Below are positions 3,106 through 60,749 of a DNA stretch of 64,000 nt, piece after piece. The first letter of the stretch is position 1. Each line of letters begins with the position of its first letter. Made by a program: the position numbers and the translations under genes. The notes under the pieces were generated by a model. The model was not told where the DNA came from and ran no database searches. It saw nothing but the letters and a program-made list of their open reading frames with translations. The stretch comes from Patescibacteria group bacterium (GTDB taxonomy: Bacteria > Patescibacteriota > Minisyncoccia > Phycocordibacterales > CAIRYW01), in the NCBI GenBank assembly GCA_040389185.1, contig JAZKAJ010000019.1:15523-79522 (forward strand), written 5' to 3'.

Positions 3106-3335
3106 TTTTTAATATTATATTTATTGAATTTTAACATCTTAACGTAGTCAAAATATTATTTGGAAAGACTTCGCAGGCGGGTAGCCGAGACCGAGCAAAA
3201 TTTCAACAGAAATTTATGCGGGCTTTCCAAATAGTGTTTTGCGGAGTCTTTTTTGGGTCGTATACTGCCGGTTTTTTTGGATTTCATTTTAAAATATTCG
3301 TGATTGATTTGGTGTATTATACAACAAAATATAAG

Positions 3336-3376
3336 AAAAGCGAAGCACGCCATTCTGGCGTGCTTCGCTTGTTTTG
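3336..3376 (-). terminator. rho-independent terminator hairpin (agcgaagcacgcca/tggcgtgcttcgct), with a T-run on the minus strand
   Basis: Perfect 14-bp inverted repeat downstream of the 3388..4299 gene. Confidence 0.6.
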
Positions 3377-3387
3377 TCTCAAGAGCG

Positions 3388-4299
3388 CTATTTTGTATTA
3401 ATCAGAGGATATTTTTGTGGATCAATGTTTCGCGCAAAACAAGTTCTCTCCGCACCATGCTGCCAACTTTCATCACCATTCATTGCATACACGGCTTTTA
3501 CCTGATTATTATCTGATACAGTTTTGAAATCTGCACATACTTCAAAAGATAACTTTCCAGTTGTTCTGTATTCATACCCTTTCAAAGTCTCTGGATCAAG
3601 TGGAATCATATTGCCTGAAAGAGGATCCACCATATCACTCAAAACTCCTGGCAACACTCCCTTTTGTTGATAGTAATTCACAACCTGATATTGCAGATTG
3701 CTTAGATCATTCACTCTTTGTGAGTCAAAGTTAACATCGCGCTGATGCTTTGGCGAACCAATCATCACAAATCCAATAATAATTGAAAGTAGAACTATGA
3801 TAGATACTGTCGTTGCCCAGACCTTTGATCTCTTTGGATCTTCGTTGAAGTATCCTTTAAGATCCTTGAGGCAATATGTAAATATTGCGCCCGCGACCAC
3901 GAATACAGAAAGCACCTTGAGAAGAAATCCTGTTGTAAAGTCGAGTCCCGCAAGGAATGAATTAATAAGAACGATCGCATCACCTGCAATTGTTGCCCCA
4001 GTTAAAGCAAGTGTGAAATAAATAATCCACTTTCGAAGCTTACCTTCTTTGAATTCAATATTTTCTGTAATGAAATTTCGATATACTCGACTAAGCCAGA
4101 TAAAGAGCGGAAATACGACAATGAGTGTTGAGATGGAGAATCTAATGGCAGAAGTATCTGGGTAATAGTCTAATACTTGAGGAAATACATTGTTGATAAC
4201 AGAGAAAAGAAATACCAAGAAACTAATCGCAGAGATATAGAGTGTTGCGAAGATGCCGATTTGAATAAAGAAATTCTTTGGGGCTTGTGAGGACTGCAT
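3388..4299 (-). CDS. multi-pass membrane protein with a C-terminal soluble domain (DUF5671-like family common in Patescibacteria; assignment by recall)
   Basis: 303-aa ORF with four or more hydrophobic helices and then a hydrophilic tail. Confidence 0.6.
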   Translation of the reverse strand: MQSSQAPKNFFIQIGIFATLYISAISFLVFLFSVINNVFPQVLDYYPDTSAIRFSISTLIVVFPLFIWLSRVYRNFITENIEFKEGKLRKWIIYFTLALTGATIAGDAIVLINSFLAGLDFTTGFLLKVLSVFVVAGAIFTYCLKDLKGYFNEDPKRSKVWATTVSIIVLLSIIIGFVMIGSPKHQRDVNFDSQRVNDLSNLQYQVVNYYQQKGVLPGVLSDMVDPLSGNMIPLDPETLKGYEYRTTGKLSFEVCADFKTVSDNNQVKAVYAMNGDESWQHGAERTCFARNIDPQKYPLINTK

Positions 4300-4375
4300 A
4301 AATAATTAAGTAATTAGTAATAATGTAACTAATATAAATTATATAATGGAAATCTATATATAGAAAGACAACGAA

Positions 4376-4467
4376 TTTCCCCTCCCCTTGAGACGAAGGG
4401 GAGGTTGGGAGGGGTTTGAGTTTAATATCAGAACACCCCTCAGCCCCCCCCTTCATCTGAAGTGGGG
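4376..4467. repeat. GC-rich palindromic intergenic repeat, copy 1 (cccctcccc..ggggagg hairpin plus the core ggggaggttgggaggggtttgagttt)
   Basis: The 26-nt core is shared with 24704-24730. Both copies lie between two tandem minus-strand genes. Confidence 0.6.
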
Positions 4468-4487
4468 ATGAAATGCAAAATCAATAA

Positions 4488-4880
4488 TTATGAATTTTGA
4501 CGCAATGCAATTTTCAAAACAGGAATTATACCTTTTTGATGAAATCCCAATTCAAGTTTTTCAATCTCATCTATTGTCATCCATTGCATTGCTAGACCCT
4601 CATTAAGTTTTGGCTCTTGAGTTGAATTAATTTTACAAACATAAACTTTATCAGCTCCATCATTATAATCCATCAGATAATTACATTGATCGAGTTTTAA
4701 ATTCAAATCATATTCTTCTTTAATTTCTCTTAGCAGAGTTGTTTCATAATCTTCACCTTCTTCAGTTTCTCCGCCTGGCAAACACCACATAAACGGAAAT
4801 CGTTTACAGTTCCCATCTCGCTGCTGCATAAGAATCTTTTTATCACGAACCAAAGCAAAGATTACTCCAGTTTTTTGCAT
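4488..4880 (-). CDS. Nudix hydrolase (MutT-like)
   Basis: Nudix box GGETEEGEDYETTLLREIKEEYDL. Confidence 0.8.
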   Translation of the reverse strand: MQKTGVIFALVRDKKILMQQRDGNCKRFPFMWCLPGGETEEGEDYETTLLREIKEEYDLNLKLDQCNYLMDYNDGADKVYVCKINSTQEPKLNEGLAMQWMTIDEIEKLELGFHQKGIIPVLKIALRQNS

Positions 4881-4883
4881 ATT

Positions 4884-5981
4884 TTATACTCTAAATTCCA
4901 TCACATCCCCGTCCTTCACTATATATTCCTTCCCTTCTGTTCGGAGCCACCCTTTTTCTCGAGCATTACCGAAGCTTCCCGCTTCGAGTAGTTTGTTCCA
5001 CTCGATTACTTCTGCTCGAATGAATTTATCTTTAAAGTCGTTGTGAATTGCGGTTCCTGCAATAGGTGCTGTTGAATTCTTGGCGATAGTCCATGCCCGC
5101 GTCTCTACTTCTCCTGTCGTAAAGAATGTCTCAAGTCCCAAAAGGTCGTAACCTTTTTTAATGAGTGTATTGATACCGTCATCATTTGATCCGAGTTCAC
5201 TTCGAAACATTGCTTTTTCTTCTCCTTCGAAATCCTTGAGTTCATGCTCAACACCTGCATCCACGATACAATATCCTGCCTTTGAAGTTTTAATAAAATC
5301 CATGAGTTTGTTCCATCGCTCATCTTTCATTTCATCAAGGTTTGTTCCACCTGCTTTTTTGTTGAGTACATACATGATCGGTTTGAGTGTAAGAAGCGCC
5401 AAACTTTTGAGTGAGAATCTTTCTTCATCTGTAAGTTCTGCGTCGGTTGCGAGCTGACCATTTGCAAGAACCTTCAACACCTTGTCGAGAGTTTCTTTGA
5501 CTTTAATTGCTTCTTTGTCTCCTCGCTTCACATCCTTTTCAATAGTTCCGATTCTTTTTGATACTGTTTCATGATCTGCGAGCACGAGTTCGAGATTGAT
5601 GACGCCGATATCTGATACAGGATCGATCTTGCCATCCACGTGGATCACATTACCGTCTTCAAAGATTCTAACAACTTCACAAATCGCATCCACCTCTCGA
5701 ATATGAGAGAGGAACTTGTTACCAAGACCTTCCCCTTCTGATGCACCTTTAACGAGTCCTGCAATATCTACAAATTCTACGATTGCCGGAACTGTTTTTT
5801 GGGTTTTTGAAAATGCTGCGAGTTTGTAGAGTCGTTCATCAGGCACCGGTACAACACCTACAGATGGATCTATAGTACAGAAAGGATAATTCTCGGCAGG
5901 CACAGACTTTTTAGTGAGTGCATTAAAGAGTGTTGATTTACCGACGTTTGGGAGACCTACGATTCCAATTGAAATTTGCAT
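4884..5981 (-). CDS. ychF: ribosome-binding ATPase YchF (Obg-family GTPase with a TGS domain)
   Basis: [16 protein letters not shown]-loop and a C-terminal TGS-like segment; 365 aa. Confidence 0.9.
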
Positions 5982-6261
5982 CGGTTTAATATAGCAAACA
6001 AATAGATTGTTTCAAAGCAATTTGATATGATTTTAGCGATGAAAAATACATTCCACCCTGTTCTTTCAGTTCGTGTTCAAAGTGTCACGGCACCTTGCCC
6101 AGAGGAATGGCTCCGCCATATTTTGGAAGGATTTCCAGCAAAGACCTTTCACCGGCTTGCATCTCCAGTGGTCGATCTCACGACACAACGCCAATTGTTC
6201 ATCAGGTAATCTGAAATACGATAACCGCCAGTCTTGCAATAATGCGGGACTGGATTTTATT

Positions 6262-6741
6262 TTAGATTTCTTCCTTCGCGTGTTCCAAAGTAAGAATCAA
6301 ACGAGGCTCACCATTATCAAAATAATTTTCTTTTGTTTCACCTTTTTTAAATCCAGCCGATTCATAAAGTGCAACAGCGGCAGTATTATCAGGGTGAGTT
6401 ACAAGCCAGACTTTTATTGCATTTTTTAGATCATCTAAATCTAAAACTTGCGAAAGTGCGAACTTTCCTATTCCTTGACCCTGATATTTTTGATCTATAG
6501 TGAAAGTATTAAGGTATATACTTCCATCTTCATCTTTTCTATAAGATACAGCACCCACCGTCTCTCCGTTATGTCTTATCATAAGCACAGGACCTCGGGA
6601 CATTTCCTTTTCGAAATCAGTTACTGGAACATACGTTCTACCTGCTACCTCTTGTCCAATTCTAAGAAATGTTTCTTTGTCATTGGCAGTTGCCGCTTCC
6701 AATATTGGCATTTCTCTTATCTGTTCTTTTCCCTCTGTCAT
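6262..6741 (-). CDS. GNAT family N-acetyltransferase
   Basis: Q/RxxGxG/A-type motif QGQGIGKFAL; 159 aa. Confidence 0.7.
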   Translation of the reverse strand: MTEGKEQIREMPILEAATANDKETFLRIGQEVAGRTYVPVTDFEKEMSRGPVLMIRHNGETVGAVSYRKDEDGSIYLNTFTIDQKYQGQGIGKFALSQVLDLDDLKNAIKVWLVTHPDNTAAVALYESAGFKKGETKENYFDNGEPRLILTLEHAKEEI

Positions 6742-15091: not shown

Positions 15092-15220
15092 CCATGAATC
15101 CCGTTAGAAGCCGCGGTCACGATTTAATAGGAAGCTGTAGTATAATATGAAAATGAAGCAAAAAAATTACAAATTTAATCTAAGTAGTAGCGAGATGATC
15201 GCGACCTGCTTCTAAACGGG

Positions 15221-24637: not shown

Positions 24638-24730
24638 CCCTCAAATCCCCTCTTTATCCAAAGAGGGGAAGCTAATCCGTATTTCCCCTCCCCTTTGTCC
24701 AAAGGGGAGGCTGGGAGGGGTTTGAGTTTT
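24633..24730. repeat. GC-rich palindromic intergenic repeat, copy 2 (two hairpins plus the core ggggaggctgggaggggtttgagtttt)
   Basis: Shares modules with 4376-4467. Confidence 0.6.
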
Positions 24731-24746
24731 GAATTTATTTCATTCA

Positions 24747-26028
24747 TTAGAGTTTCGCGATTAATTCCTCAATCTCCATTGTTGTACTTTCCATCCCCAT
24801 TCCACCCGCCACAATTCGTAGTATTGGCTCAGTATTTGACGATCTGATATTAACCCAAAACTCATTAAAGACAAATGTGAGTCCATCTCGCCTATCAATT
24901 CGATTTGCCCTTTTTCCTAAAGATTTTTCGACTTCAGTATAAATCACCGCCATATCTTTGCCTTCTGTTTTGATTTCTTTTGTGGTTACTATATGCTCTC
25001 CAAATTCTTTTTGCCATTCTGAAAGATTCTTTTCCATCTTTGAAATAGAATTCAAGAATGTAATCGCAGCAAATATTCCAGAATCAGCATTAAAGAACTC
25101 TTTAAAATAATAGTGTCCAGAATATTCCGCTCCAAAGTCCGCATTTTGACCTCTGAGCGTCTCTTTGATGAAATATGCACCAATTCTCGATGGTACCATT
25201 TGCTCCTCTGGAACAAGCTTCAAAAGCCTCACAGACTGATATACAAGTTCATCGAGAATGTAGGGTGGATTAAATTCGCTCTTCAGAAGCCCTACTACAA
25301 AACATGCAGGAATCATCTCTCCTCTATCATCCAAAAAGAATGCACGGTCTGCATCAGCATCAAACATTAGACCGAGATCTGCACCATTTTCAAGTATCGC
25401 TTTTTTACACTGTAGACTCGCCCCATCAAGTAATGGATTTGGTCCATGGGCTTTAAAATCAGCGTCAATCTCATCGTTTATAACAATCGCATTCACGTTT
25501 GTCTCTGCAAATAAGTCTTTTATTATCATTCCTGCAGGACCATTGGATACATCAAAAATTACTTTGAGAGGCTTACTCACATTTAACTTTTTCTTCAAAA
25601 AATCTATATAAGTATTTTTATAATCCATTTGTTTCAATAACCTTGAGTAATTCGATACCACTAAAAGGCAGCGCTTTTTCTTTGACCGCTTTGACTCCAC
25701 TGTATTCTTTTGGATTATGAGATGCGGTGATCATTACACCCCCTGAAGCCTTGAAGTGATTAACAAGAAAATAAAACATCGGGGTCGTCGAAAGACCAAC
25801 AGAAATTATTTCAAATTTTTTGTTCAAAGTTTCACCGTACGAAACGATTTCCTTTTCGAGAGTTGCTGTTAGCTCTTCGCCACCATGTCGTCCATCTCGA
25901 GCAACAACGATACTTCCAGATGGAAGAAGTATTGCGAGCGCATGGGCAATTACCGTCACAGCCTCAACATTTACATCTCTAGGATATATTCCACGAACAT
26001 CATAAGCTTTAAATATCTTTTTATTCAT
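24747..26028 (-). pseudogene. phosphoglucosamine/phosphomannomutase (alpha-D-phosphohexomutase) interrupted by a single-nucleotide frameshift near 25620-25650
   Basis: The N-terminal ORF 25618..26028 has TASHNP. The C-terminal ORF 24747..25700 has the domain II-IV pattern. The two overlap in different frames around LLK. Confidence 0.6.
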
Positions 26029-26146
26029 CCCCGTTTCGAAGCAGGTCGCGGTCGGTCCGCTTCTGCTCGGTTTAATTTATAAACGTTTTTTCTGTTCATA
26101 TTAGATTTATATTTAATTCAAATCGTGACCGCGGCTTCGAACGGGG
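26029..26146. mobile_element. MITE-like hairpin element B (variant termini ccccgtttcgaagc / gcttcgaacgggg)
   Basis: Inverted termini related to the family TIR. It abuts the ATG of the phosphohexomutase gene. Confidence 0.5.
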
Positions 26147-26407
26147 TCATCCCGTTCGAAACAGGAAGCGCTTTAATCTTGCTTTAAGATAACACTTACC
26201 TCTTCCAGATTTTAAATATAATTCTCTCGATCGAGCATCATCTTCGTTAATTGAGGCTTCATAATATACGAGTATAAACGGGCCTCTGCCTTTTGTCCAA
26301 GTCGATTCACCATTTTGATGTTGTTTAAAGCGCTTCCGTAGATCCTTTGTAAATCCAGTATAAAACTTACCATCTTTGGTACTCATTATTATGTAAGTGT
26401 AGAACAT
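26147..26407 (-). CDS. GIY-YIG nuclease domain protein (86 aa; YhbQ/COG2827-like)
   Basis: FYTYIIMS...GKFYTGFTKDLRKRFKQH...E...R.RELYLKSGRGK motif set. Confidence 0.65.
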   Translation of the reverse strand: MFYTYIIMSTKDGKFYTGFTKDLRKRFKQHQNGESTWTKGRGPFILVYYEASINEDDARSRELYLKSGRGKCYLKARLKRFLFRTG

Positions 26408-26429
26408 AACTGAGGGGTTTCGAACGGGA
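26150..26429. mobile_element. 280-bp element A with perfect 13-bp TIRs (tcccgttcgaaac / gtttcgaacggga) carrying only a GIY-YIG gene
   Basis: TIRs read directly. The left TIR encodes the C-terminal residues FLFRTG* of the nuclease. Confidence 0.6.
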
Positions 26430-43957: not shown

Positions 43958-44227
43958 GATATTAGAAGTTTGGATTTGAACTGACAGACAATAATCCTTA
44001 GCAAACCTAAGAGATTGATTACAGCCTTTCTCTCAAATCCAATCCAACTTACCTTTTAAAGAACTTTCTCATTCATTCAAAGAAATAACATATTTTATGC
44101 AAGTAGTCAATTTATATACTTTATAATTTTGTGGTCACAAATATTTTTCCTGACGGAAAAATTTCGCGACCCCGCCTCGCGGTTTTTGCCTTTCGGAGTA
44201 CCTCAAACAAAAACATCGCTGTGACTT

Positions 44228-44279
44228 CCACATAAATACAAAAACTCCCCAACTAAGGGGAGTTTTTGTATTTATGTGG
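44228..44279 (-). terminator. 23-bp perfect hairpin immediately 3' of tRNA-Ala (ccacataaatacaaaaactcccc / ggggagtttttgtatttatgtgg)
   Basis: Read directly. Overlaps the last 3 nt of the tRNA. Confidence 0.7.
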
Positions 44280-44349
44280 ACCCTACCAGATTCGAACTGG
44301 TGACCTCCTCATTGCAAATGAGGCGCTCTACCAACTAAGCTAAGGGCCC
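44277..44349 (-). tRNA. tRNA-Ala (anticodon UGC); G3:U70 present; CCA not encoded
   Basis: Cloverleaf folded by hand: GGGCCCT acceptor, anticodon loop TTTGCAA, T-arm CCAGTTCGAATCTGG; 73 nt. Confidence 0.85.
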
Positions 44350-50864: not shown

Positions 50865-50970
50865 CCCGATTAGAAAAATTAAGTAATTACTAATGTTTAA
50901 ATAAATTTGTTTATCACCGCCACATTCTCGTTTGAAATAGATATTTATCTTTTTCTAACGGGACTTTGTA

Positions 50971-54970: not shown

Positions 54971-55660
54971 TTAAATCGAATCCTTTACCTCTCGTATTGC
55001 GTCAACCGGGCTCACACTATTTAATATATATGAACCCACAACAAATCTAGTTGCCCCAGCATCATAAGCATCACCTACACTTTCTGGAGTTACTCCACCA
55101 TCAATAGCTATTGGCATCGTAGGAAGCTCGGTTTTGAGCCACTTTATTTTTGCGAGGACTCTTTCATCAAATTTTTGTCCTTGGAATCCAAGGTGTTCTA
55201 TCGCAACAAACATAATAAAGTCTGCGTATGGAAGCAATTCCTGAACTCTTTCAACACCCGTTTGAAGCTTAAATGCAATTCCTACTTGGACCAATCCTTC
55301 TGTTCGAAGCTGATCAAGAAGCAGTCTGTCTTCATCAAGATCGATTGTTTCTGCATGAATGATGATTTTGCTTGCACCAAGCTTAATAATATCCGGAATA
55401 AGAGCAAATGGGTTTTTAACCATCAAGTGAAATTCAAAATCAAAATCCTCCCAGAAAGGCATTCCTCTTTCTTCATTCAATATCTCCTCATAATTAAGGT
55501 CGGGTTTGCCGAGTGGCCATGTAGCCTCTTGAGTAAAAAGACCATCGCAAATATCGATATGTACTGTGTCAGATACACCTTTAATAATCTCGAGTTTGGT
55601 CTCAAGGTCTTTGAAGTATTTTGGGATTATAGCTGGAATAATTTCAATTGATTCGTCCAT
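54971..55660 (-). CDS. rpe: ribulose-phosphate 3-epimerase family
   Basis: HIDICDG, HLMV, HAE, IDGG pattern; 229 aa. Confidence 0.6.
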   Translation of the reverse strand: MDESIEIIPAIIPKYFKDLETKLEIIKGVSDTVHIDICDGLFTQEATWPLGKPDLNYEEILNEERGMPFWEDFDFEFHLMVKNPFALIPDIIKLGASKIIIHAETIDLDEDRLLLDQLRTEGLVQVGIAFKLQTGVERVQELLPYADFIMFVAIEHLGFQGQKFDERVLAKIKWLKTELPTMPIAIDGGVTPESVGDAYDAGATRFVVGSYILNSVSPVDAIREVKDSI

Positions 55661-55668
55661 GTATTTTC

Positions 55669-56118
55669 TTAATTATTTAAATTTTCTATTTTATCTATTC
55701 GTCTCTGATGTCGTTCGTCTCCAGAGAATGGAGTGTCTATCCAGAGCTTGAGAGCTTGTTTTGCCTCATCAATACTCACAAATCGAGCACCAAGAGACAG
55801 TACATTAGCATCATTATGCTCTCGTGACAATTTTACAATGTCCATGTTTCCTCCATACCAAAGTGCCGCACGCACATTCGGAAATCTGTTAGCCACAATT
55901 GCCTCTCCTTGTCCTGAGCCCCCGATCACAACTCCTTTTGCACTCGGGTCCTGACTAACCTCGCGCGCAGCAAGTGAGATAAAGTCTGGATAGTCATCAA
56001 GCGCTTCAAATGTAGTGTTACCTTTATCTATTGCGTCAAATCCGAGTGTTTTTACATATTCAACAAGCGCGTTTTTGAATTCAAAGCCTGCATGATCACT
56101 TGCGAAAAAAATTTTCAT
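55669..56118 (-). CDS. rpiB: ribose-5-phosphate isomerase B
   Basis: MKIFFASDHAGFEFKN N-terminus; 149 aa. Confidence 0.8.
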   Translation of the reverse strand: MKIFFASDHAGFEFKNALVEYVKTLGFDAIDKGNTTFEALDDYPDFISLAAREVSQDPSAKGVVIGGSGQGEAIVANRFPNVRAALWYGGNMDIVKLSREHNDANVLSLGARFVSIDEAKQALKLWIDTPFSGDERHQRRIDKIENLNN

Positions 56119-56130
56119 AATAAGTAATTA

Positions 56131-57195
56131 TTATACGTAACGCGGAGTTTCTGGACCGCTATCTTTGACTGGAGTTTGCCCTGCTTTTAACACATGGAGA
56201 ATAAGTGAGTGTGTATACCCAATCTCATTGTCATACCACGCGCACACCTTAACCAGGTTATCATCCACCACTCGAGTAAGACCGAGGTCCGCAATAGATG
56301 CATATACTGACCCTACAATATCTGAAGAGACAAGCTCATCTTTTGTTATAGCAAACGTTTCTTTCCATCTCGCTTCGTTTGCGGCAGTTGTAAGAATCTG
56401 ATTTATTTCTTCTACAGTAGTTTTTCTTTTTGTGAGAATTGTTATATCTGCAATTGATCCTGCGACAACAGGTACACGCATTGAGATACCATCAAACTTC
56501 CCAATAAGCTGAGGTAATGCTTTCGCTACAGCGAGAGCTGCACCTGTTGATGTTGGCACAATATTTTGTGCCGCTGCGCGACCTTCTTTCCAATCCTTTG
56601 GTTTTGGACCATCAACAAGTGACTGACTTGCAGTATATGCATGAACAGTTGAGAGAATTGCTTTTTCAATACCGATTGCTTCATCAATAATTGCCATCAC
56701 AGGACTTGATGCATTTGTAGTACAAGAGGCATTTGACGTAATAGGAGAATCTCCAAACTGATTTTCGTTGATACCCATAAGAATTGTTGGAACCTTTGGA
56801 CTTCCCGCTTCATCTTTTGCAGGAGCTGAGATCACCACACGTTTTGCTCCAGCTGTAATATGACCCGAAGCTTTTGTGTAGCTTGTGAAAAATCCGGTTG
56901 ATTCAACAACCACATCAATTCCAAGGTCTTTCCAAGGCAAGCTTGCAGGATCTTTTTCACTGAAATACTGTACTTTTTTACCAGCAATCGTCAGCGACTT
57001 TTTGTCAGCCGCAACTTCAATAGCAAAACCACTTTTTCCATACGCACTATCAAACTTCATTAAGTAGGCAATGTTATCGATATCACCCAAGTCATTGAGT
57101 GCCACAACTTCAATATCAGGCACCCCAAGGGCTACTTTATAAAAAGCTCTTCCAATTCTACCTGCGCCATTAATGGCAACTTTTATTTTATTCAT
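56131..57195 (-). CDS. gap: glyceraldehyde-3-phosphate dehydrogenase
   Basis: INGAGRIGR, SNASCTTN active-site region. Confidence 0.85.
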   Translation of the reverse strand: MNKIKVAINGAGRIGRAFYKVALGVPDIEVVALNDLGDIDNIAYLMKFDSAYGKSGFAIEVAADKKSLTIAGKKVQYFSEKDPASLPWKDLGIDVVVESTGFFTSYTKASGHITAGAKRVVISAPAKDEAGSPKVPTILMGINENQFGDSPITSNASCTTNASSPVMAIIDEAIGIEKAILSTVHAYTASQSLVDGPKPKDWKEGRAAAQNIVPTSTGAALAVAKALPQLIGKFDGISMRVPVVAGSIADITILTKRKTTVEEINQILTTAANEARWKETFAITKDELVSSDIVGSVYASIADLGLTRVVDDNLVKVCAWYDNEIGYTHSLILHVLKAGQTPVKDSGPETPRYV

Positions 57196-57384
57196 CCTGT
57201 TCTAAATAGGAGAGGCTTTAGCAATCCCAATATTTTATTTAATAAATTGATAATGGTTATTTTCTAGCTTATACTGCACTAAAACTAAGCGCTTCCGAAA
57301 TATTTAGGATTTAAACTGTTTATCAATCCTATAGTCACACATTTAATAATGTAACTTCGGACAACTGTGGGATTTCGAACGGGA
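57195..57384. mobile_element. MITE-like element C (degenerate left terminus tcctgttctaaat, perfect right terminus atttcgaacggga); about 90% similar to element D
   Basis: Aligned by eye to 62455-62643. Its left end abuts the gap start codon. Confidence 0.55.
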
Positions 57385-57440
57385 GACGCTCCAATAATTA
57401 TACCTTAAAATACTTTGGGCACAAATATTTTGAGGAGAAT

Positions 57441-58919
57441 TTATGCAAGAATACTTAACATTATTTCCTTGAAAAGTTGAGGGTTTCCAGAACCTTTACT
57501 TTCTTTCATACAAAGACCAACAAGAGAGTTCAAAACCGCCACTTTCCCAGCTCGATATTCAGCAACAATAGCATGATTATCGCTCATAACTTTTTCTACA
57601 ATTATTTTGAGTGCTTCGGGATCATTCTTTTGAATAAGCCCCCTTTCGTCAGCAATTTTTTCTGGATCTCCACCTTCTTTAAAGAGTATTGCAAGAATGT
57701 CTTTTGCTCCACGACTTGAGAGTTTCCCATCGCGAACCATGAGCATCATTTTTCCAAATGCGCTTGGAAATACTTGCCCTGGTTCTGCAATATTATTATT
57801 TTTCATCAGTCCCGCAAGGTCAGAAACGATATAGTTTGAAGCGAGCTTCACACATTCTTTATCATCACAAAAATTCTCTATAGTCTGTTCGAAGAAATCA
57901 GAAAGAGGTTTGTTATCAACATAAAACTCAATGTCTTCCGCTTTGATACCATACTCCTTTTCGTATCTTTCTCTTTTTCCACTTGGCAGTTCCGCCATTT
58001 CTTTTCGAAGTTCAATTTCGGCAAATTCTGGAATCTCTGAAATATAGAGCTTTGGAATATCTGGCTCTGGAAAATATCGGTAGTCATGAGAATCCTCTTT
58101 CTTCCGCTGTGAAAAAGTCTTGCCCGTACTTTCATCGAACCCCCGAGTTTCTTGTGCGATAGTTTCACCATTTTCAAGGACTCCAATATGTCGCTCGATT
58201 TCATAGACACATGCTCGCTCCACAGATCTGAATGAGTTTAGGTTTTTGACCTCAACCTTTGTTCCGAGTTTGTTTGGGTCTTTTGATACAGAAATATTCG
58301 CCTCTACTCGCATCTCACCTTTTTCCATGTTTGCATCCGATGCGCCGAGATATTGAAGGATAAGCTGGAATTCTTTTGCAAAAACACTCGCCTCTGCTCC
58401 TGAATGCATGACAGGTTCAGTCACAAGTTCCATAAGAGGAAGTGACGACCGATTGTAATCCACAAGTGAATAATCACCAGTGTCATGTGATGATTTTGCA
58501 GTGTCTTCTTCAAGATGGATTCGAGTGAGCAAAATATCACGTGTGACATCAACTCCATTTTCTTTTATTTTTACTTTGATTTTTCCTCCAGAAACGAATG
58601 GATATTTGTACTGACTGATCTGGTATCCTTTTGGAATGTCTGGATAGAAATAGTTCTTTCGGTCAAATTCTGAGAAGTCTGCGAGAGTCCCCTCTACTGC
58701 AAGACCAACTTTGAGCGTGTGCTTTACCGCCTCTTTGTTTGGTACTGGAAGCGTACCTGGATGACCCATACAGATAGGACATATATTCACATTAGGATTT
58801 TTCTCCTCCGGATCGTTCTTACAAGGACAAAACATCTTACTCTTTGTTTTGAGCTCTGCATGTATCTCTAATCCTATAGTTGGTATGTATTCGTTCATAT
58901 TTTTATATTCCTTACCCAC
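57441..58919 (-). CDS. gatB: Asp-tRNA(Asn)/Glu-tRNA(Gln) amidotransferase subunit B
   Basis: GLEIHAELKTKSKMFC, HPGTLP motifs; 492 aa. Confidence 0.9.
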   Translation of the reverse strand: MGKEYKNMNEYIPTIGLEIHAELKTKSKMFCPCKNDPEEKNPNVNICPICMGHPGTLPVPNKEAVKHTLKVGLAVEGTLADFSEFDRKNYFYPDIPKGYQISQYKYPFVSGGKIKVKIKENGVDVTRDILLTRIHLEEDTAKSSHDTGDYSLVDYNRSSLPLMELVTEPVMHSGAEASVFAKEFQLILQYLGASDANMEKGEMRVEANISVSKDPNKLGTKVEVKNLNSFRSVERACVYEIERHIGVLENGETIAQETRGFDESTGKTFSQRKKEDSHDYRYFPEPDIPKLYISEIPEFAEIELRKEMAELPSGKRERYEKEYGIKAEDIEFYVDNKPLSDFFEQTIENFCDDKECVKLASNYIVSDLAGLMKNNNIAEPGQVFPSAFGKMMLMVRDGKLSSRGAKDILAILFKEGGDPEKIADERGLIQKNDPEALKIIVEKVMSDNHAIVAEYRAGKVAVLNSLVGLCMKESKGSGNPQLFKEIMLSILA

Positions 58920-58953
58920 TTGAAATTTGTAGTGTAGTCAAATTTCACTTGAG

Positions 58954-58984
58954 TTGCATAATTGTGCAAATATAGTAGCATAAA
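58954..58984 (+). promoter_or_regulatory. promoter-like motif gttgcataattgtgcaaatatagtagcataaa (copy 1)
   Basis: Near-identical 31-nt motif recurs at 59282-59312. Each copy is about 35 nt upstream of a small plus-strand ORF. Confidence 0.4.
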
Positions 58985-59018
58985 TTTTGAAGCTACGAAA
59001 CCTTGCACCTTACGTGAT

Positions 59019-59189
59019 ATGCCTACACTTTACATACCAGCACTTGGACCAATCTTCCCTCAACAATTCCACGGTCGTGAATTACATCCAGACACCTGCT
59101 TCTTTCAAATCCCCCCACTTCATCCAAAAGCTTTAGAATGGGCACGCATTTTTGTGGAAAACCGGGCACCAAAAAATGCTGAAGAGTAG
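59019..59189 (+). CDS. hypothetical small Pro/Phe-rich protein (56 aa from ATG; the ORF track starts at a TTG at 58962)
   Basis: ORF bracketed by the promoter-like motif and a terminator. Confidence 0.3.
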   Translation: MPTLYIPALGPIFPQQFHGRELHPDTCFFQIPPLHPKALEWARIFVENRAPKNAEE

Positions 59190-59201
59190 TCGAATCAGCA
59201 T

Positions 59202-59236
59202 CCCACACGTTGCTCATAAGCTAGTGTGGTTTTTTA
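59202..59236 (+). terminator. hairpin ccacac..gtgtgg plus T6
   Basis: Read directly. Confidence 0.55.
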
Positions 59237-59281
59237 TTTCAACTAATTCCTAAAAATATCTAATATGGAAAACTGTTCCGG

Positions 59282-59312
59282 TTGCATATTTATACAAATG
59301 TAGTAGCATAAA
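59282..59312 (+). promoter_or_regulatory. promoter-like motif gttgcatatttatacaaatgtagtagcataaa (copy 2)
   Basis: See 58954-58984. Confidence 0.4.
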
Positions 59313-59348
59313 AATGAACCTAAACAAAAACACTTTACCCCTGTTCTT

Positions 59349-59564
59349 ATGACCCCCTGTGACTACCATGGCTGCGAAAGTGAAGGAACTCATACCATTC
59401 TTTGTATGGGAAGTTACTGCGAGACTCACTTCGACTTAATCAAACGGCGAGAAAACGATCATGATGATGACGACGATGACAATGACGATGATTTCGAAGA
59501 TTCCGAAGAAGACAATGATGATGAGGAAGATGAGGAGGGCGAGGATGATGATGAAGGAAAATAA
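59349..59564 (+). CDS. small Cys/His zinc-binding protein with a poly-acidic (D/E) tail
   Basis: CDYHGCE...CMGSYCETH followed by about 40 residues of D/E. Confidence 0.5.
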   Translation: MTPCDYHGCESEGTHTILCMGSYCETHFDLIKRRENDHDDDDDDNDDDFEDSEEDNDDEEDEEGEDDDEGK

Positions 59565-59585
59565 TCCCATATCATACTCTTATCA

Positions 59586-59626
59586 CACACCGCACACCTC
59601 TTTATGGTTAAGTGCGGTTTTTTATT
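59586..59626 (+). terminator. hairpin accgcac..gtgcggt plus T7
   Basis: Read directly. Confidence 0.65.
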
Positions 59627-59630
59627 TCTT

Positions 59631-59673
59631 GTCCAGCACTAAATAAATTCTTGAAATTTATTTAGTGCTGGAC
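59631..59673. terminator. perfect palindrome gtccagcactaaataaat tcttgaa atttatttagtgctggac overlapping the obg stop codon
   Basis: 18-bp stem. Confidence 0.6.
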
Positions 59674-60653
59674 TTGTTGAAAGTCGAGGTAAGATAGCTT
59701 GAAAGGTGTTTCAATGCTTCTGTGTCATAAACAGACACTGTCATTACTTTTTTACCAGCCCAAATGCCTTTTCCTTTTATAAGTTTTTCATATTTTGCCG
59801 AAAGCTCCTCAGGAGTAAGTAGGTCTGATTTTGTAATGAGAATTATTTCTTCTTTTTCAGTCAGCGTTTTATCTGATTCTCCCAATTCTTTTCTGATTGT
59901 TTGATATACTTCTTTGAAATCTTCATTCTCAGCAGAAATACAATGAAGGATCGCTCGAGTTCTCTTAATATGTCGAAGAAATTTGTATCCAAGTCCTCGT
60001 CCTTCTGATGCACCTTCAATAAGTCCTGGAATGTCTGCGAGTATCACACCGAAGAGGTCCCCAAGATTTGGCTCGATAGTCGTAAAGGCATAAGCACCCA
60101 CTTTTGCATGCGCTCGAGTAAGTGCGTTCAATAGTGATGATTTACCTGCATTTGGAAGCCCTACAAGACCTATGTCAGCAACGATCTGAAGTTCAATGTA
60201 GAATTCTGCTTCTTCACCAATTGCACCTGGGGTGAATTCTTCAGGAGAACGATTGATTGAACTTTTGAAAAACTCATTTCCCACCCCACCTCGTCCACCC
60301 TTCAAAATCATTTTTGTTTCTTCACGGTTTACAAGAGAAAATACTTCTCCGGTGTCGAGATTTTTGACCACAGTTCCAACCGGAAGTTCAATATAGAGAT
60401 CGATACCATCCTTTCCATGCATACTGTTTTTTGCTCCCGGTTCACCATTTTCTGCCCAGAATTTCTTCTTTGTTTTGTATCTCTGAAGAATCGAAAGGTC
60501 ACTCACCGCTTTGATGAATACATCGCCACCTCGCCCTCCGTTACCTCCTGATGGACCAGAAAACTCTTTTCCTTTCTCATGTCTCCATCTGACGACTCCG
60601 TCGCCTCCTTTACCCGCTTTCGCACTAACTGTTAGTTCGTCGATGAATGACAT
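59658..60653 (-). CDS. obg: GTPase Obg
   Basis: Gly-rich Obg fold (GKGGDGVV..GGNGGRGGDV), then the G-domain (GLPNAGKSSL). Confidence 0.9.
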   Translation of the reverse strand: MSFIDELTVSAKAGKGGDGVVRWRHEKGKEFSGPSGGNGGRGGDVFIKAVSDLSILQRYKTKKKFWAENGEPGAKNSMHGKDGIDLYIELPVGTVVKNLDTGEVFSLVNREETKMILKGGRGGVGNEFFKSSINRSPEEFTPGAIGEEAEFYIELQIVADIGLVGLPNAGKSSLLNALTRAHAKVGAYAFTTIEPNLGDLFGVILADIPGLIEGASEGRGLGYKFLRHIKRTRAILHCISAENEDFKEVYQTIRKELGESDKTLTEKEEIILITKSDLLTPEELSAKYEKLIKGKGIWAGKKVMTVSVYDTEALKHLSSYLTSTFNKSSTK

Positions 60654-60749
60654 ATGTTTAAGTTATGAGTTAATAGTTTAAATACTGTTGTAGTATAACA
60701 CAAAAGTTGCTTGGGACCTACGGTACCAAGCAACTTTTGTGAATCTATT

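Follow-up and report, generated by a model that had tools for sequence, protein, structure and literature searches.

The DNA analysed here, hereafter the window, is a 64,000-nucleotide stretch of contig JAZKAJ010000019.1, a low-GC (about 38%) contig of a metagenome-assembled genome from the Patescibacteria (candidate phyla radiation, CPR). Two short non-coding repeats on its minus strand, copies C and D, stand directly before host genes of the same strand, and a first inspection of the letters (the sequence-only reading) had taken them for deletion derivatives of a GIY-YIG nuclease element, of the kind called MITEs (miniature transposable elements with inverted repeats). Copy C (57195..57384) lies between gatB (57441..58919) and the gene for glyceraldehyde-3-phosphate dehydrogenase, gap (56131..57195), where it separates a promoter-like leader with a GGAG motif, downstream of gatB, from the ATG of gap. 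Copy D (62455..62643) fills the entire gap between the TAA stop codon of an ABC transporter ATPase gene (62644..63369) and the ATG of an ABC-2 permease gene (61664..62455). Their sizes, 190 and 189 bp, agree with the earlier estimate of about 190 bp, and both lie where that reading had placed them.

The terminal sequences of C and D are TCCCGTTCGAAAT/ATTTCGAACGGGA. The 13-mer ATTTCGAACGGGA occurs exactly at 57372-57384 and 62631-62643, the sense 5' ends of the two copies (sense TCCCGTTCGAAAT), and its inverted copy is exact at the 3' end of D (62455..62467; 13 of 13 bases) and carries two mismatches at that of C (57195..57207, ATTTAGAACAGGA; 11 of 13), so that the common 13-bp terminus first described is complete everywhere except at the decayed 3' end of C. 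In both copies the final base of the 3' terminus is the A of the host start codon (ATG 57193-57195 in the case of gap). Matches to ATTTCGAACGGGA with at most two mismatches number 12 in the window as compared with 1.7 expected, a count reached in none of 100 shuffles. Each copy also has an inner inverted repeat. In D, the 5' arm GGAAGCGCTT (62548..62557) and the 3' arm AAGCGCTTCC (62469..62478), which abuts the 3' terminus, belong to a perfect 11-bp pair (62469-62479/62547-62557), and the element folds well into a 13-bp terminal stem plus an inner stem (z = -3.6 as RNA and -4.5 as DNA). In C, the older and more decayed copy, the 5' arm is retained (57287..57296, sense GGAAGCGCTT, a relic of the codons R-K-R-F), the 3' arm has decayed (57209..57218, sense AAGCCTCTCC; the outer arm now reads GGAGAGGCTT) and folding is weak (z = -2.0); the long hairpin predicted from the internal inverted copy is thus borne out for D but not for C. 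The homology between the two copies is nonetheless clear, with a local-alignment z of 26 for the interiors, although their identity, which ranges from 73% (MAFFT) to 82% (gap-permissive global alignment), falls short of the roughly 90% first proposed. As that reading also held, neither contains a nuclease open reading frame (ORF), and no relic of one was detected at the protein level: a protein hidden Markov model run against the six-frame translation of the window matched only a third element, A, which is described below.

Comparison with related genomes indicates how the two copies came to their present positions. The syntenic contig L088 is collinear with window positions 55278-63995 at 75-81% nucleotide identity, through the genes for the ABC ATPase, the permease, MYG1, Obg, GatB, Gap, RpiB and Rpe, and has 12 nt at the site of D and 48 nt at the site of C together with its 57-nt leader. 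The ABC ATPase and permease genes are spaced by 9-47 nt in L088-L091 as against 188 nt in the window, and gatB and gap by 48 nt in L088 as against 245 nt; D is thus missing from all four relatives and C from L088. Because these relatives have short empty sites, and because nucleotide homology stops exactly at the edges of C and D with the host start codons at the same positions, the alignments identify both copies as insertions rather than ancestral spacer, C having entered, as first read, between housekeeping genes. A 420-nt spacer between gap and rpiB in L088 was considered as a possible element and rejected.

The deleted form is present in a second genome. A first scan of a metagenome collection of 241 million records with a 5' pattern specific to C and D gave no match, and the 3'-end pattern of their subtype, named TTCGAA after its terminus, gave one exact match. 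This copy E (L087, 3675-3862; 189 bp) has the same internal deletion and lies directly upstream of a lexA-like gene. Its identity over the whole length, non-coding middle included, is 85% with D and 76% with C, and contig L087 has no DNA in common with the window except the element (E = 7e-55). Its terminal inverted repeat is perfect over the 12 bases scanned, and its flanks, ATTGA and ATGGA, match as a direct repeat in four of five positions. Since three copies with one length and one deletion occupy unrelated sites, upstream of gap, the ABC-2 permease gene and the lexA-like gene, and three independent deletions of this kind are implausible, the comparison shows the deleted form itself to have dispersed, and C, D and E most likely spread in that form. 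On the same contig, an 86-aa ORF (4869-5129) was examined as a possible GIY-YIG protein and rejected. Immediately upstream of E (3863-3910, minus strand) there is a 32-bp miniature inverted-repeat hairpin, TCCTGTTCGAAAGACAAAATATTTCTGAGGGA, preceded by ATGGAG, and the gene downstream of E starts with ATGGAC; the arrangement resembles either a footprint or a series of tandem insertions at a single start codon.

Element A (26150..26429, minus strand) is full-length, 280 bp, and bounded by terminal inverted repeats of 14 bp (ATCCCGTTCGAAAC/GTTTCGAACGGGAT); the family profile matches it with an nhmmer E-value of 3.6e-66. Its sole ORF (26147..26407, minus strand; stop TGA at 26147-26149) encodes an 86-aa protein in which a GIY-YIG domain (PF01541, E = 1.4e-16) spans residues 1-67; the element contains no second, DNA-binding domain and no transposase fold of the DDE, HUH, serine recombinase or tyrosine recombinase type. 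Every family-invariant residue is present (Y3, Y5, Y16, G18, R24, R26, H30 and E62), and the last codons (..LKRFLFRTG) are written by an arm of the inner repeat and the terminus. The protein is nearest to the UPF0213 member BH0048 (1zg2, E = 2e-12), followed by 1ywl (E = 5.5e-5) and SLX1 (7wme, E = 0.0065), and scores 28.8 bits against TIGR01453, for which the cut-off is 56. By its sequence, A fits no known insertion-sequence family.

The link of C and D to A comes from profile searches and from shared landmarks. With 70 full-length elements of other genomes as the profile, D aligns colinearly to positions 2-122 and 253-277 (E = 0.054 and 0.0022 for the whole window, improving to 2.8e-4 and 1.2e-5 when the search was targeted), and conversely a profile of C, D and E matches the first 102 nt (E = 1.9e-4) and the last 33 nt (E = 0.011) of A in a 1.3-Mb search, so that the stretches linked to A are the first ~96-120 nt and the last ~25-33 nt. 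The landmarks are colinear too: the distance of GGAAGCGCTT from the 5' end is 92 nt in A, 88 nt in C and 86 nt in D, and AAGCGCTTCC lies directly beside the 3' terminus. The copies retain the 5' third of the unit, with the terminus, the decayed start of the ORF and the arm GGAAGCGCTT that codes for LRKRF, as well as the 3' end, with AAGCGCTTCC and the terminus, and the match of their inner ends to A, already noted from the letters, is confirmed (AGGAAGCGCTT beside one terminus and ..ATGTAA..ACAACT.TGG.. beside the other). Since landmarks and profile matches agree, C and D are, as far as sequence comparison can tell, the full unit minus about 130 nt of its coding middle. The ends are also the same within this one genome (ATCCCGTTCGAAAC in A, ..TCCCGTTCGAAAT in C and D), and a TTCGAA terminus is found in one of 71 full-length elements, which is A itself; because this terminus is otherwise rare, A, C and D look like a cognate set, with A as the candidate autonomous partner. 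The profile links to A, the same rare terminus and intact ORF of A, the empty sites and copy E thus support a MITE-like reading, and C and D show most of the features that define a MITE, the exception being that no direct repeat flanks either of them. The homology, the insertions and the shared rare terminus support the autonomous/nonautonomous relationship first proposed, but to call it 'classic' was too strong, because to our knowledge no transposon family uses a GIY-YIG nuclease.

The full-length elements belong to a large family. The 86-aa protein has hundreds of relatives, 65-77% identical and mostly from Patescibacteria, and a genome scan found at least 554 stretches that encode one. The architecture was derived from 70-71 full-length elements from different genomes (about 70) of many lineages. 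The unit measures 272-293 bp and is bounded by a 14-bp terminal inverted repeat with the consensus ATCCCGTTAGAGAT; the family terminus is of the (A)TCCCGTTAGAGAT type, of which A, C and D carry the TTCGAA variant. Positions -1 to 12 of the terminus form Watson-Crick pairs in 67-71 of the 71 elements, and since the columns hold several pair types (e.g., CCCGATAGTGTC/GACACTATCGGG and CACGTATGAAAT/ATTTCATACGTG), the two ends co-vary. No G:T pair and a few A:C pairs occur in roughly 990 paired positions; we therefore rejected an RNA stem as the reason for the pairing, as the wobble-pair test gave no RNA signature and points to a constraint at the level of DNA. The right terminal arm codes for the last residues of the nuclease (..RFLxxTG) and its stop codon. 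A second, 10-nt inverted repeat pairs codons R24-F27 with codons K79-L82, its second arm adjoining the 3' terminus, and is perfect in 42 of 52 elements, as compared with 9.0 expected when partners are permuted (maximum 19 in 2000 permutations). The internal repeat first noticed in C and D is this one, an ancestral, selected feature of the family.

The family also has a defined relation to host start codons. In 40 of 47 elements of the TCCCG class (class 1) the host ATG follows directly after CGGG, usually as an ATGA that overlaps the nuclease stop codon. A 5-nt direct repeat, ATGNN, flanks the CCCG...CGGG core, with a near-invariant T between its left copy and CCCG, and bases 4-5 of the left and right copies are the same in 21 of 24 cases (9.8 expected; not reached in 20000 permutations); in the CCCCG..CGGGG subclass the direct-repeat test was not significant overall. 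For 14 of 29 elements the left ATG shares the reading frame of the nuclease, which is not clearly above one third, and several full-length copies without an ATG of their own could start only at the duplicated host ATG. The 'long' nuclease variants of 93-96 aa (e.g., P0003, P0017, P0041 and P0081) owe their N-terminal extensions to the left terminal repeat, translated from the duplicated host ATG (e.g., M-D-H-V-R-N.. from ATGGATCACGTTAGAAAT). Nuclease homologues with inverted and direct repeats stand upstream of many different genes, and no transposase was seen beside the loci inspected, which were not surveyed systematically. One related locus, L035, has three CCCCG-class GIY-YIG copies within 3.3 kb (3243-6555), whose ORFs continue without a stop into the next ORF (224, 599 and 234 codons); they may represent N-terminal fusions, or internal starts may have gone unrecognised.

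Shorter elements with family termini occur as well, both in the window and in the related loci. In the window, a type-2 element of 122 bp (15099..15220, plus strand; termini TCCCGTTAGAAG.../...CTTCTAAACGGGA) lies between ATGAAT direct repeats, the right copy of which is the start of atpB. In L093, L094 and L096 the corresponding site has a single ATG, 3-8 nt past the upstream stop codon; since ATGAAT is doubled here and the ATG is single in the relatives, this is the expected picture of an empty site. A second type-2 element (26029..26145, minus strand; 117 bp, fold z = -5.6) stands in tandem with A, directly upstream of the ATG of a phosphoglucomutase gene, and a degenerate short element of 98 bp (50865..50962, minus strand; termini CCCGTTAGAAAAA/TTTTTCTAATCGGG) abuts another ATG. 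These three elements of 98-122 bp have related CCCGTT.GAA termini and different interiors. About 40 further short elements (35-139 bp) with family termini were found in 663 kb of related loci (L007-L086), where inverted pairs numbered 116 as against 5 in a reversed-sequence control. Many have matching flanks of 5-6 bp (ATGAAT/ATGAAA, GTAAAC/GTAAAC, GTGAGC/GTGAGC and GTATGC/GTATGC), individual elements show GTNNAC/GTNNAC repeats, and the first and last bases of the flank are complementary in each pair (A..T or G..C).

With homology, insertion, dispersal of the deleted form, co-variation of both repeats and the direct repeat established, we regard it as probable that C and D are non-autonomous, internally deleted, MITE-like copies of an ultra-small mobile-element family of Patescibacteria. 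The unit comprises the 14-bp terminal inverted repeat, the 10-bp inner repeat and the one 86-aa nuclease ORF, and its insertion would create a direct repeat of 5-6 bp, typically ATGAA(T); surviving copies lie right where a host gene begins, in the orientation of that gene. The repeat on the right would rebuild the host ATG, overlapping the nuclease stop codon (ATGA), and the one on the left could act as the start codon of the nuclease. Paired termini and inner repeat would form a branched DNA structure. The nuclease may cut at the base of the paired termini and so move in trans both the full-length copies and the deleted ones, while the joining would be finished by host functions; that it is the A-family nuclease which moves C and D is what we infer by analogy with Slx1. 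Eukaryotic Slx1 cuts branched DNA near the branch point (PMC6902002). In the mRNA, the terminal stem would bring the host ribosome-binding site or the upstream stop codon next to the host ATG (the signals so juxtaposed would be the GGAG 4 nt before C and the TAA stop codon that abuts D), so that insertion could be tolerated. A bolder version, to which we give somewhat less than an even chance, sees in the 272-293-bp unit an autonomous transposable element of a new class, possibly the smallest known. Its 86-aa Slx1-like nuclease would recognise the branched or hairpin structure of the co-varying repeats, which are partly its own coding sequence; the 5-6-bp duplication would capture the host ribosome-binding site and start codon for translation of the nuclease, with the overlapping ATGA returning ribosomes; and C, D, E and the many 35-139-bp elements would be MITEs of the full unit.

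Several observations weigh against this interpretation. When interiors are compared pairwise, without the termini and the AAGCGCTT motifs, the similarity of A and D is not significant (z = 3.1, 8 of 500 shuffles) and that of A and C is at background (z = 0.5), so that the condition which the sequence-only reading had set for its own refutation comes out borderline at this level, and it is the profile searches that restore the homology; C alone was picked up by the nhmmer family profile neither in the window nor in the targeted search. No direct repeat flanks C (GGAGCGTC on the left, ATGAAT on the right) or D (AAAAGTAA on the left, ATGAAA on the right), where the lack of a left ATGNN copy could reflect decay or selection against a spurious start codon. 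With a divergence of 15-27% the copies are old, C has lost the inner hairpin and two of its 13 terminal bases, and both may no longer be mobile. We know of no GIY-YIG enzyme that performs strand transfer, and the joining may fall to host repair or to a transposase encoded elsewhere. Finally, the association with start codons may reflect survivorship, ATGAA-type targets being tolerated only where the gene start is rebuilt.

Other origins of C and D can be weighed against the same data. That they are AT-rich intergenic spacers resembling each other by chance, with no element involved, would suit the background-level similarity of the A and C interiors, and is refuted by the z of 26 between C and D, the excess of termini, the third copy on an unrelated contig and the profiles that link C, D and E to A; its probability is negligible. 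Two separate full-length insertions, each of which lost its ORF in place and was never copied in short form, would explain why C and D are old, degenerate and devoid of flanking direct repeats, and why full-length elements outnumber 190-bp ones by 70 to 3 in the sampled loci (one of the 3 being unrelated). We consider such in-situ decay very unlikely, as it would not yield the same product three times: C, D and E, at three unrelated sites in two genomes, agree in length and deletion, and their non-coding middles align throughout (D-E 85%, C-D 73%, C-E 76%).

A more substantial alternative is that an unlinked enzyme, either a conventional transposase or host recombination and repair, moves the units, with C and D as its ordinary MITEs and the GIY-YIG ORF as cargo or as a selfish addiction or homing module inside. 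No strand-joining activity is known for GIY-YIG nucleases, which hydrolyse DNA, and since many short elements share termini and differ in interior (e.g., 15099-15220 and 26029-26145), termini alone suffice for propagation. Nevertheless, in about 70 genomes of many lineages the ORF has the termini and inner repeat built into it and co-varies with them, the 280-bp unit is too small to hold a second gene, C and D share their rare TTCGAA terminus with the resident GIY-YIG copy, and the inspected loci, though not a systematic survey, had no transposase beside them; we judge this explanation unlikely. Exaptation, in which C and D now serve gap and the ABC permease gene as leaders (as promoter, as an RNA stem for coupling, or for mRNA stability), appears less likely again. 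Both copies sit exactly between upstream signals and a start codon, pairing of the D termini would set the TAA upstream beside the ATG downstream, GGAG precedes C at 4 nt, and the block TGATAWACAGTTTAMAT..TATACT, kept in C, D and E, is a weak promoter-like match toward the host gene. Such matches are no commoner than in shuffled sequence, however, close relatives express the same genes without the elements, the stems of C are decaying, the lack of G:T pairs in the family termini is unlike selection on an RNA stem, and no Rfam family matches; positive evidence for exaptation was not found. The mobile, MITE-like origin set out above remains the interpretation we prefer.

As regards regulatory signals in and around the two copies, promoter and terminator scans of C and D gave results at chance level, and a search of the whole window with Rfam 15 at the gathering score had a single match, a tRNA at 44277-44349. 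The block TGATAWACAGTTTAMAT ... TATACT is the best-kept part of the interior (57299-57326 and 62560-62588, minus strand, and likewise in L087) and is a weak sigma-70-like match. A 40-nt motif, 78% identical, occurs at 44108-44147 and 57392-57431; on the minus strand the latter copy reads TTGTGC-16 nt-TATAAT just upstream of C and is probably the gap promoter, now parted from gap by C. Downstream of the array formed by A and its tandem partner, the phosphoglucomutase gene (24747-26028, minus strand) is split into two overlapping ORFs in different frames, with domain I at 25618-26028 and domains II-IV at 24747-25700, a split that may reflect a frameshift, a pseudogene or a fault of assembly. Another repeat, G/C-rich, 52 nt long and 87% identical, lies at 4372-4423 and 24678-24729 (plus strand); it has a CCCCTCCCCTT..AAGGGGAGG hairpin and is unrelated to the GIY-YIG elements. 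Direct repeats at 7806-7886/8987-9067 and 8895-8943/9571-9619, with 79-96% identity and a spacing of about 0.7-1.2 kb, point to tandem duplication of paralogous genes.

Bacterial MITEs such as the Correia elements of Neisseria, RUP of pneumococci and MITEAba12 (PMC3184786, PMC10969869) resemble C and D in many ways: they are about 100-300 bp long, non-coding and intergenic, have terminal inverted repeats and long-hairpin potential, are present or absent between relatives, are co-transcribed with their neighbours and have ends shared with or derived from a coding element. The coding element differs, as the ends of known MITEs are shared with insertion sequences for DDE-type transposases, whereas here they belong to a 280-bp unit with an 86-aa GIY-YIG nuclease. 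The family is also unlike known MITEs in its insertion at the start codon with an ATGNN repeat, although C and D themselves have no detectable direct repeat. REP/REPIN sequences with their IS200/IS605-like RAYT genes similarly combine one small nuclease-type gene with many short palindromic, hairpin-forming intergenic derivatives whose structured ends are probably a recognition feature (PMC3116915, PMC2817692). However, RAYTs are HUH/Y1 enzymes that are usually single-copy, flanked by REPs and without target duplication (PMC3116915, PMC2817692), in contrast to a GIY-YIG enzyme whose ORF lies inside and overlaps the repeats and which is accompanied by a 5-6-bp direct repeat.

Closer in enzyme type are the GIY-YIG homing endonucleases (I-TevI and T4 Seg; TIGR01453), which share the catalytic domain and the habit of a small selfish gene wedged between conserved host genes. 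They combine a C-terminal DNA-binding domain with a single long cognate site and leave neither inverted nor direct repeats, whereas A consists of the catalytic core only and its relatives occupy many unrelated sites with repeats; we therefore rejected A as a homing endonuclease gene. Slx1 and UPF0213 proteins (COG2827, YhbQ-like; 1zg2, 1ywl and 7wme) share the minimal GIY-YIG domain and its conserved positions Tyr, Tyr, Arg, His and Glu, and stand-alone prokaryotic members were treated in a 2006 survey of the superfamily as chromosomal, repair-type proteins of unknown function (PMC1564403); that survey describes neither terminal inverted repeats nor mobility for them, unlike what is seen in the A family. 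A 2024 study reports insertions in CPR rRNA genes that encode GIY-YIG proteins, are not introns and seem unlike homing elements (PMC11270868). Compared by description only, these come from the same bacterial group but lie inside rRNA genes, and the passages on them mention no inverted or direct repeats. In a literature search that left most subscription journals aside, we found no account of GIY-YIG mini-elements flanked by inverted repeats, and the 272-293-bp family is apparently undescribed.

If this interpretation is correct, the genes annotated as 'GIY-YIG nuclease family protein', which abound in Patescibacteria, would not be repair genes; a compact mobile element would carry them as cargo and probably be driven by them, and the same recasting would extend to GIY-YIG genes of other uncultured lineages. 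It would give the stand-alone Slx1/UPF0213-like branch its first functional context, answer the question left open in 2006 of whether further GIY-YIG members act as molecular parasites (PMC1564403), and add one more nuclease fold to the few enzymes tied to transposon-type mobility. For genome annotation, units and MITEs that inflate intergenic spacers and produce spurious extensions at N termini (the 93-96-aa variants) and possibly fused ORFs would mean that operon and start-codon prediction in metagenome-assembled genomes can be misled. For the organisms themselves, the family would show how a parasite can persist at low cost in the tightly packed operons of very small genomes, by placing its termini within coding sequence, duplicating the host start codon and overlapping its stop codon with the host start.

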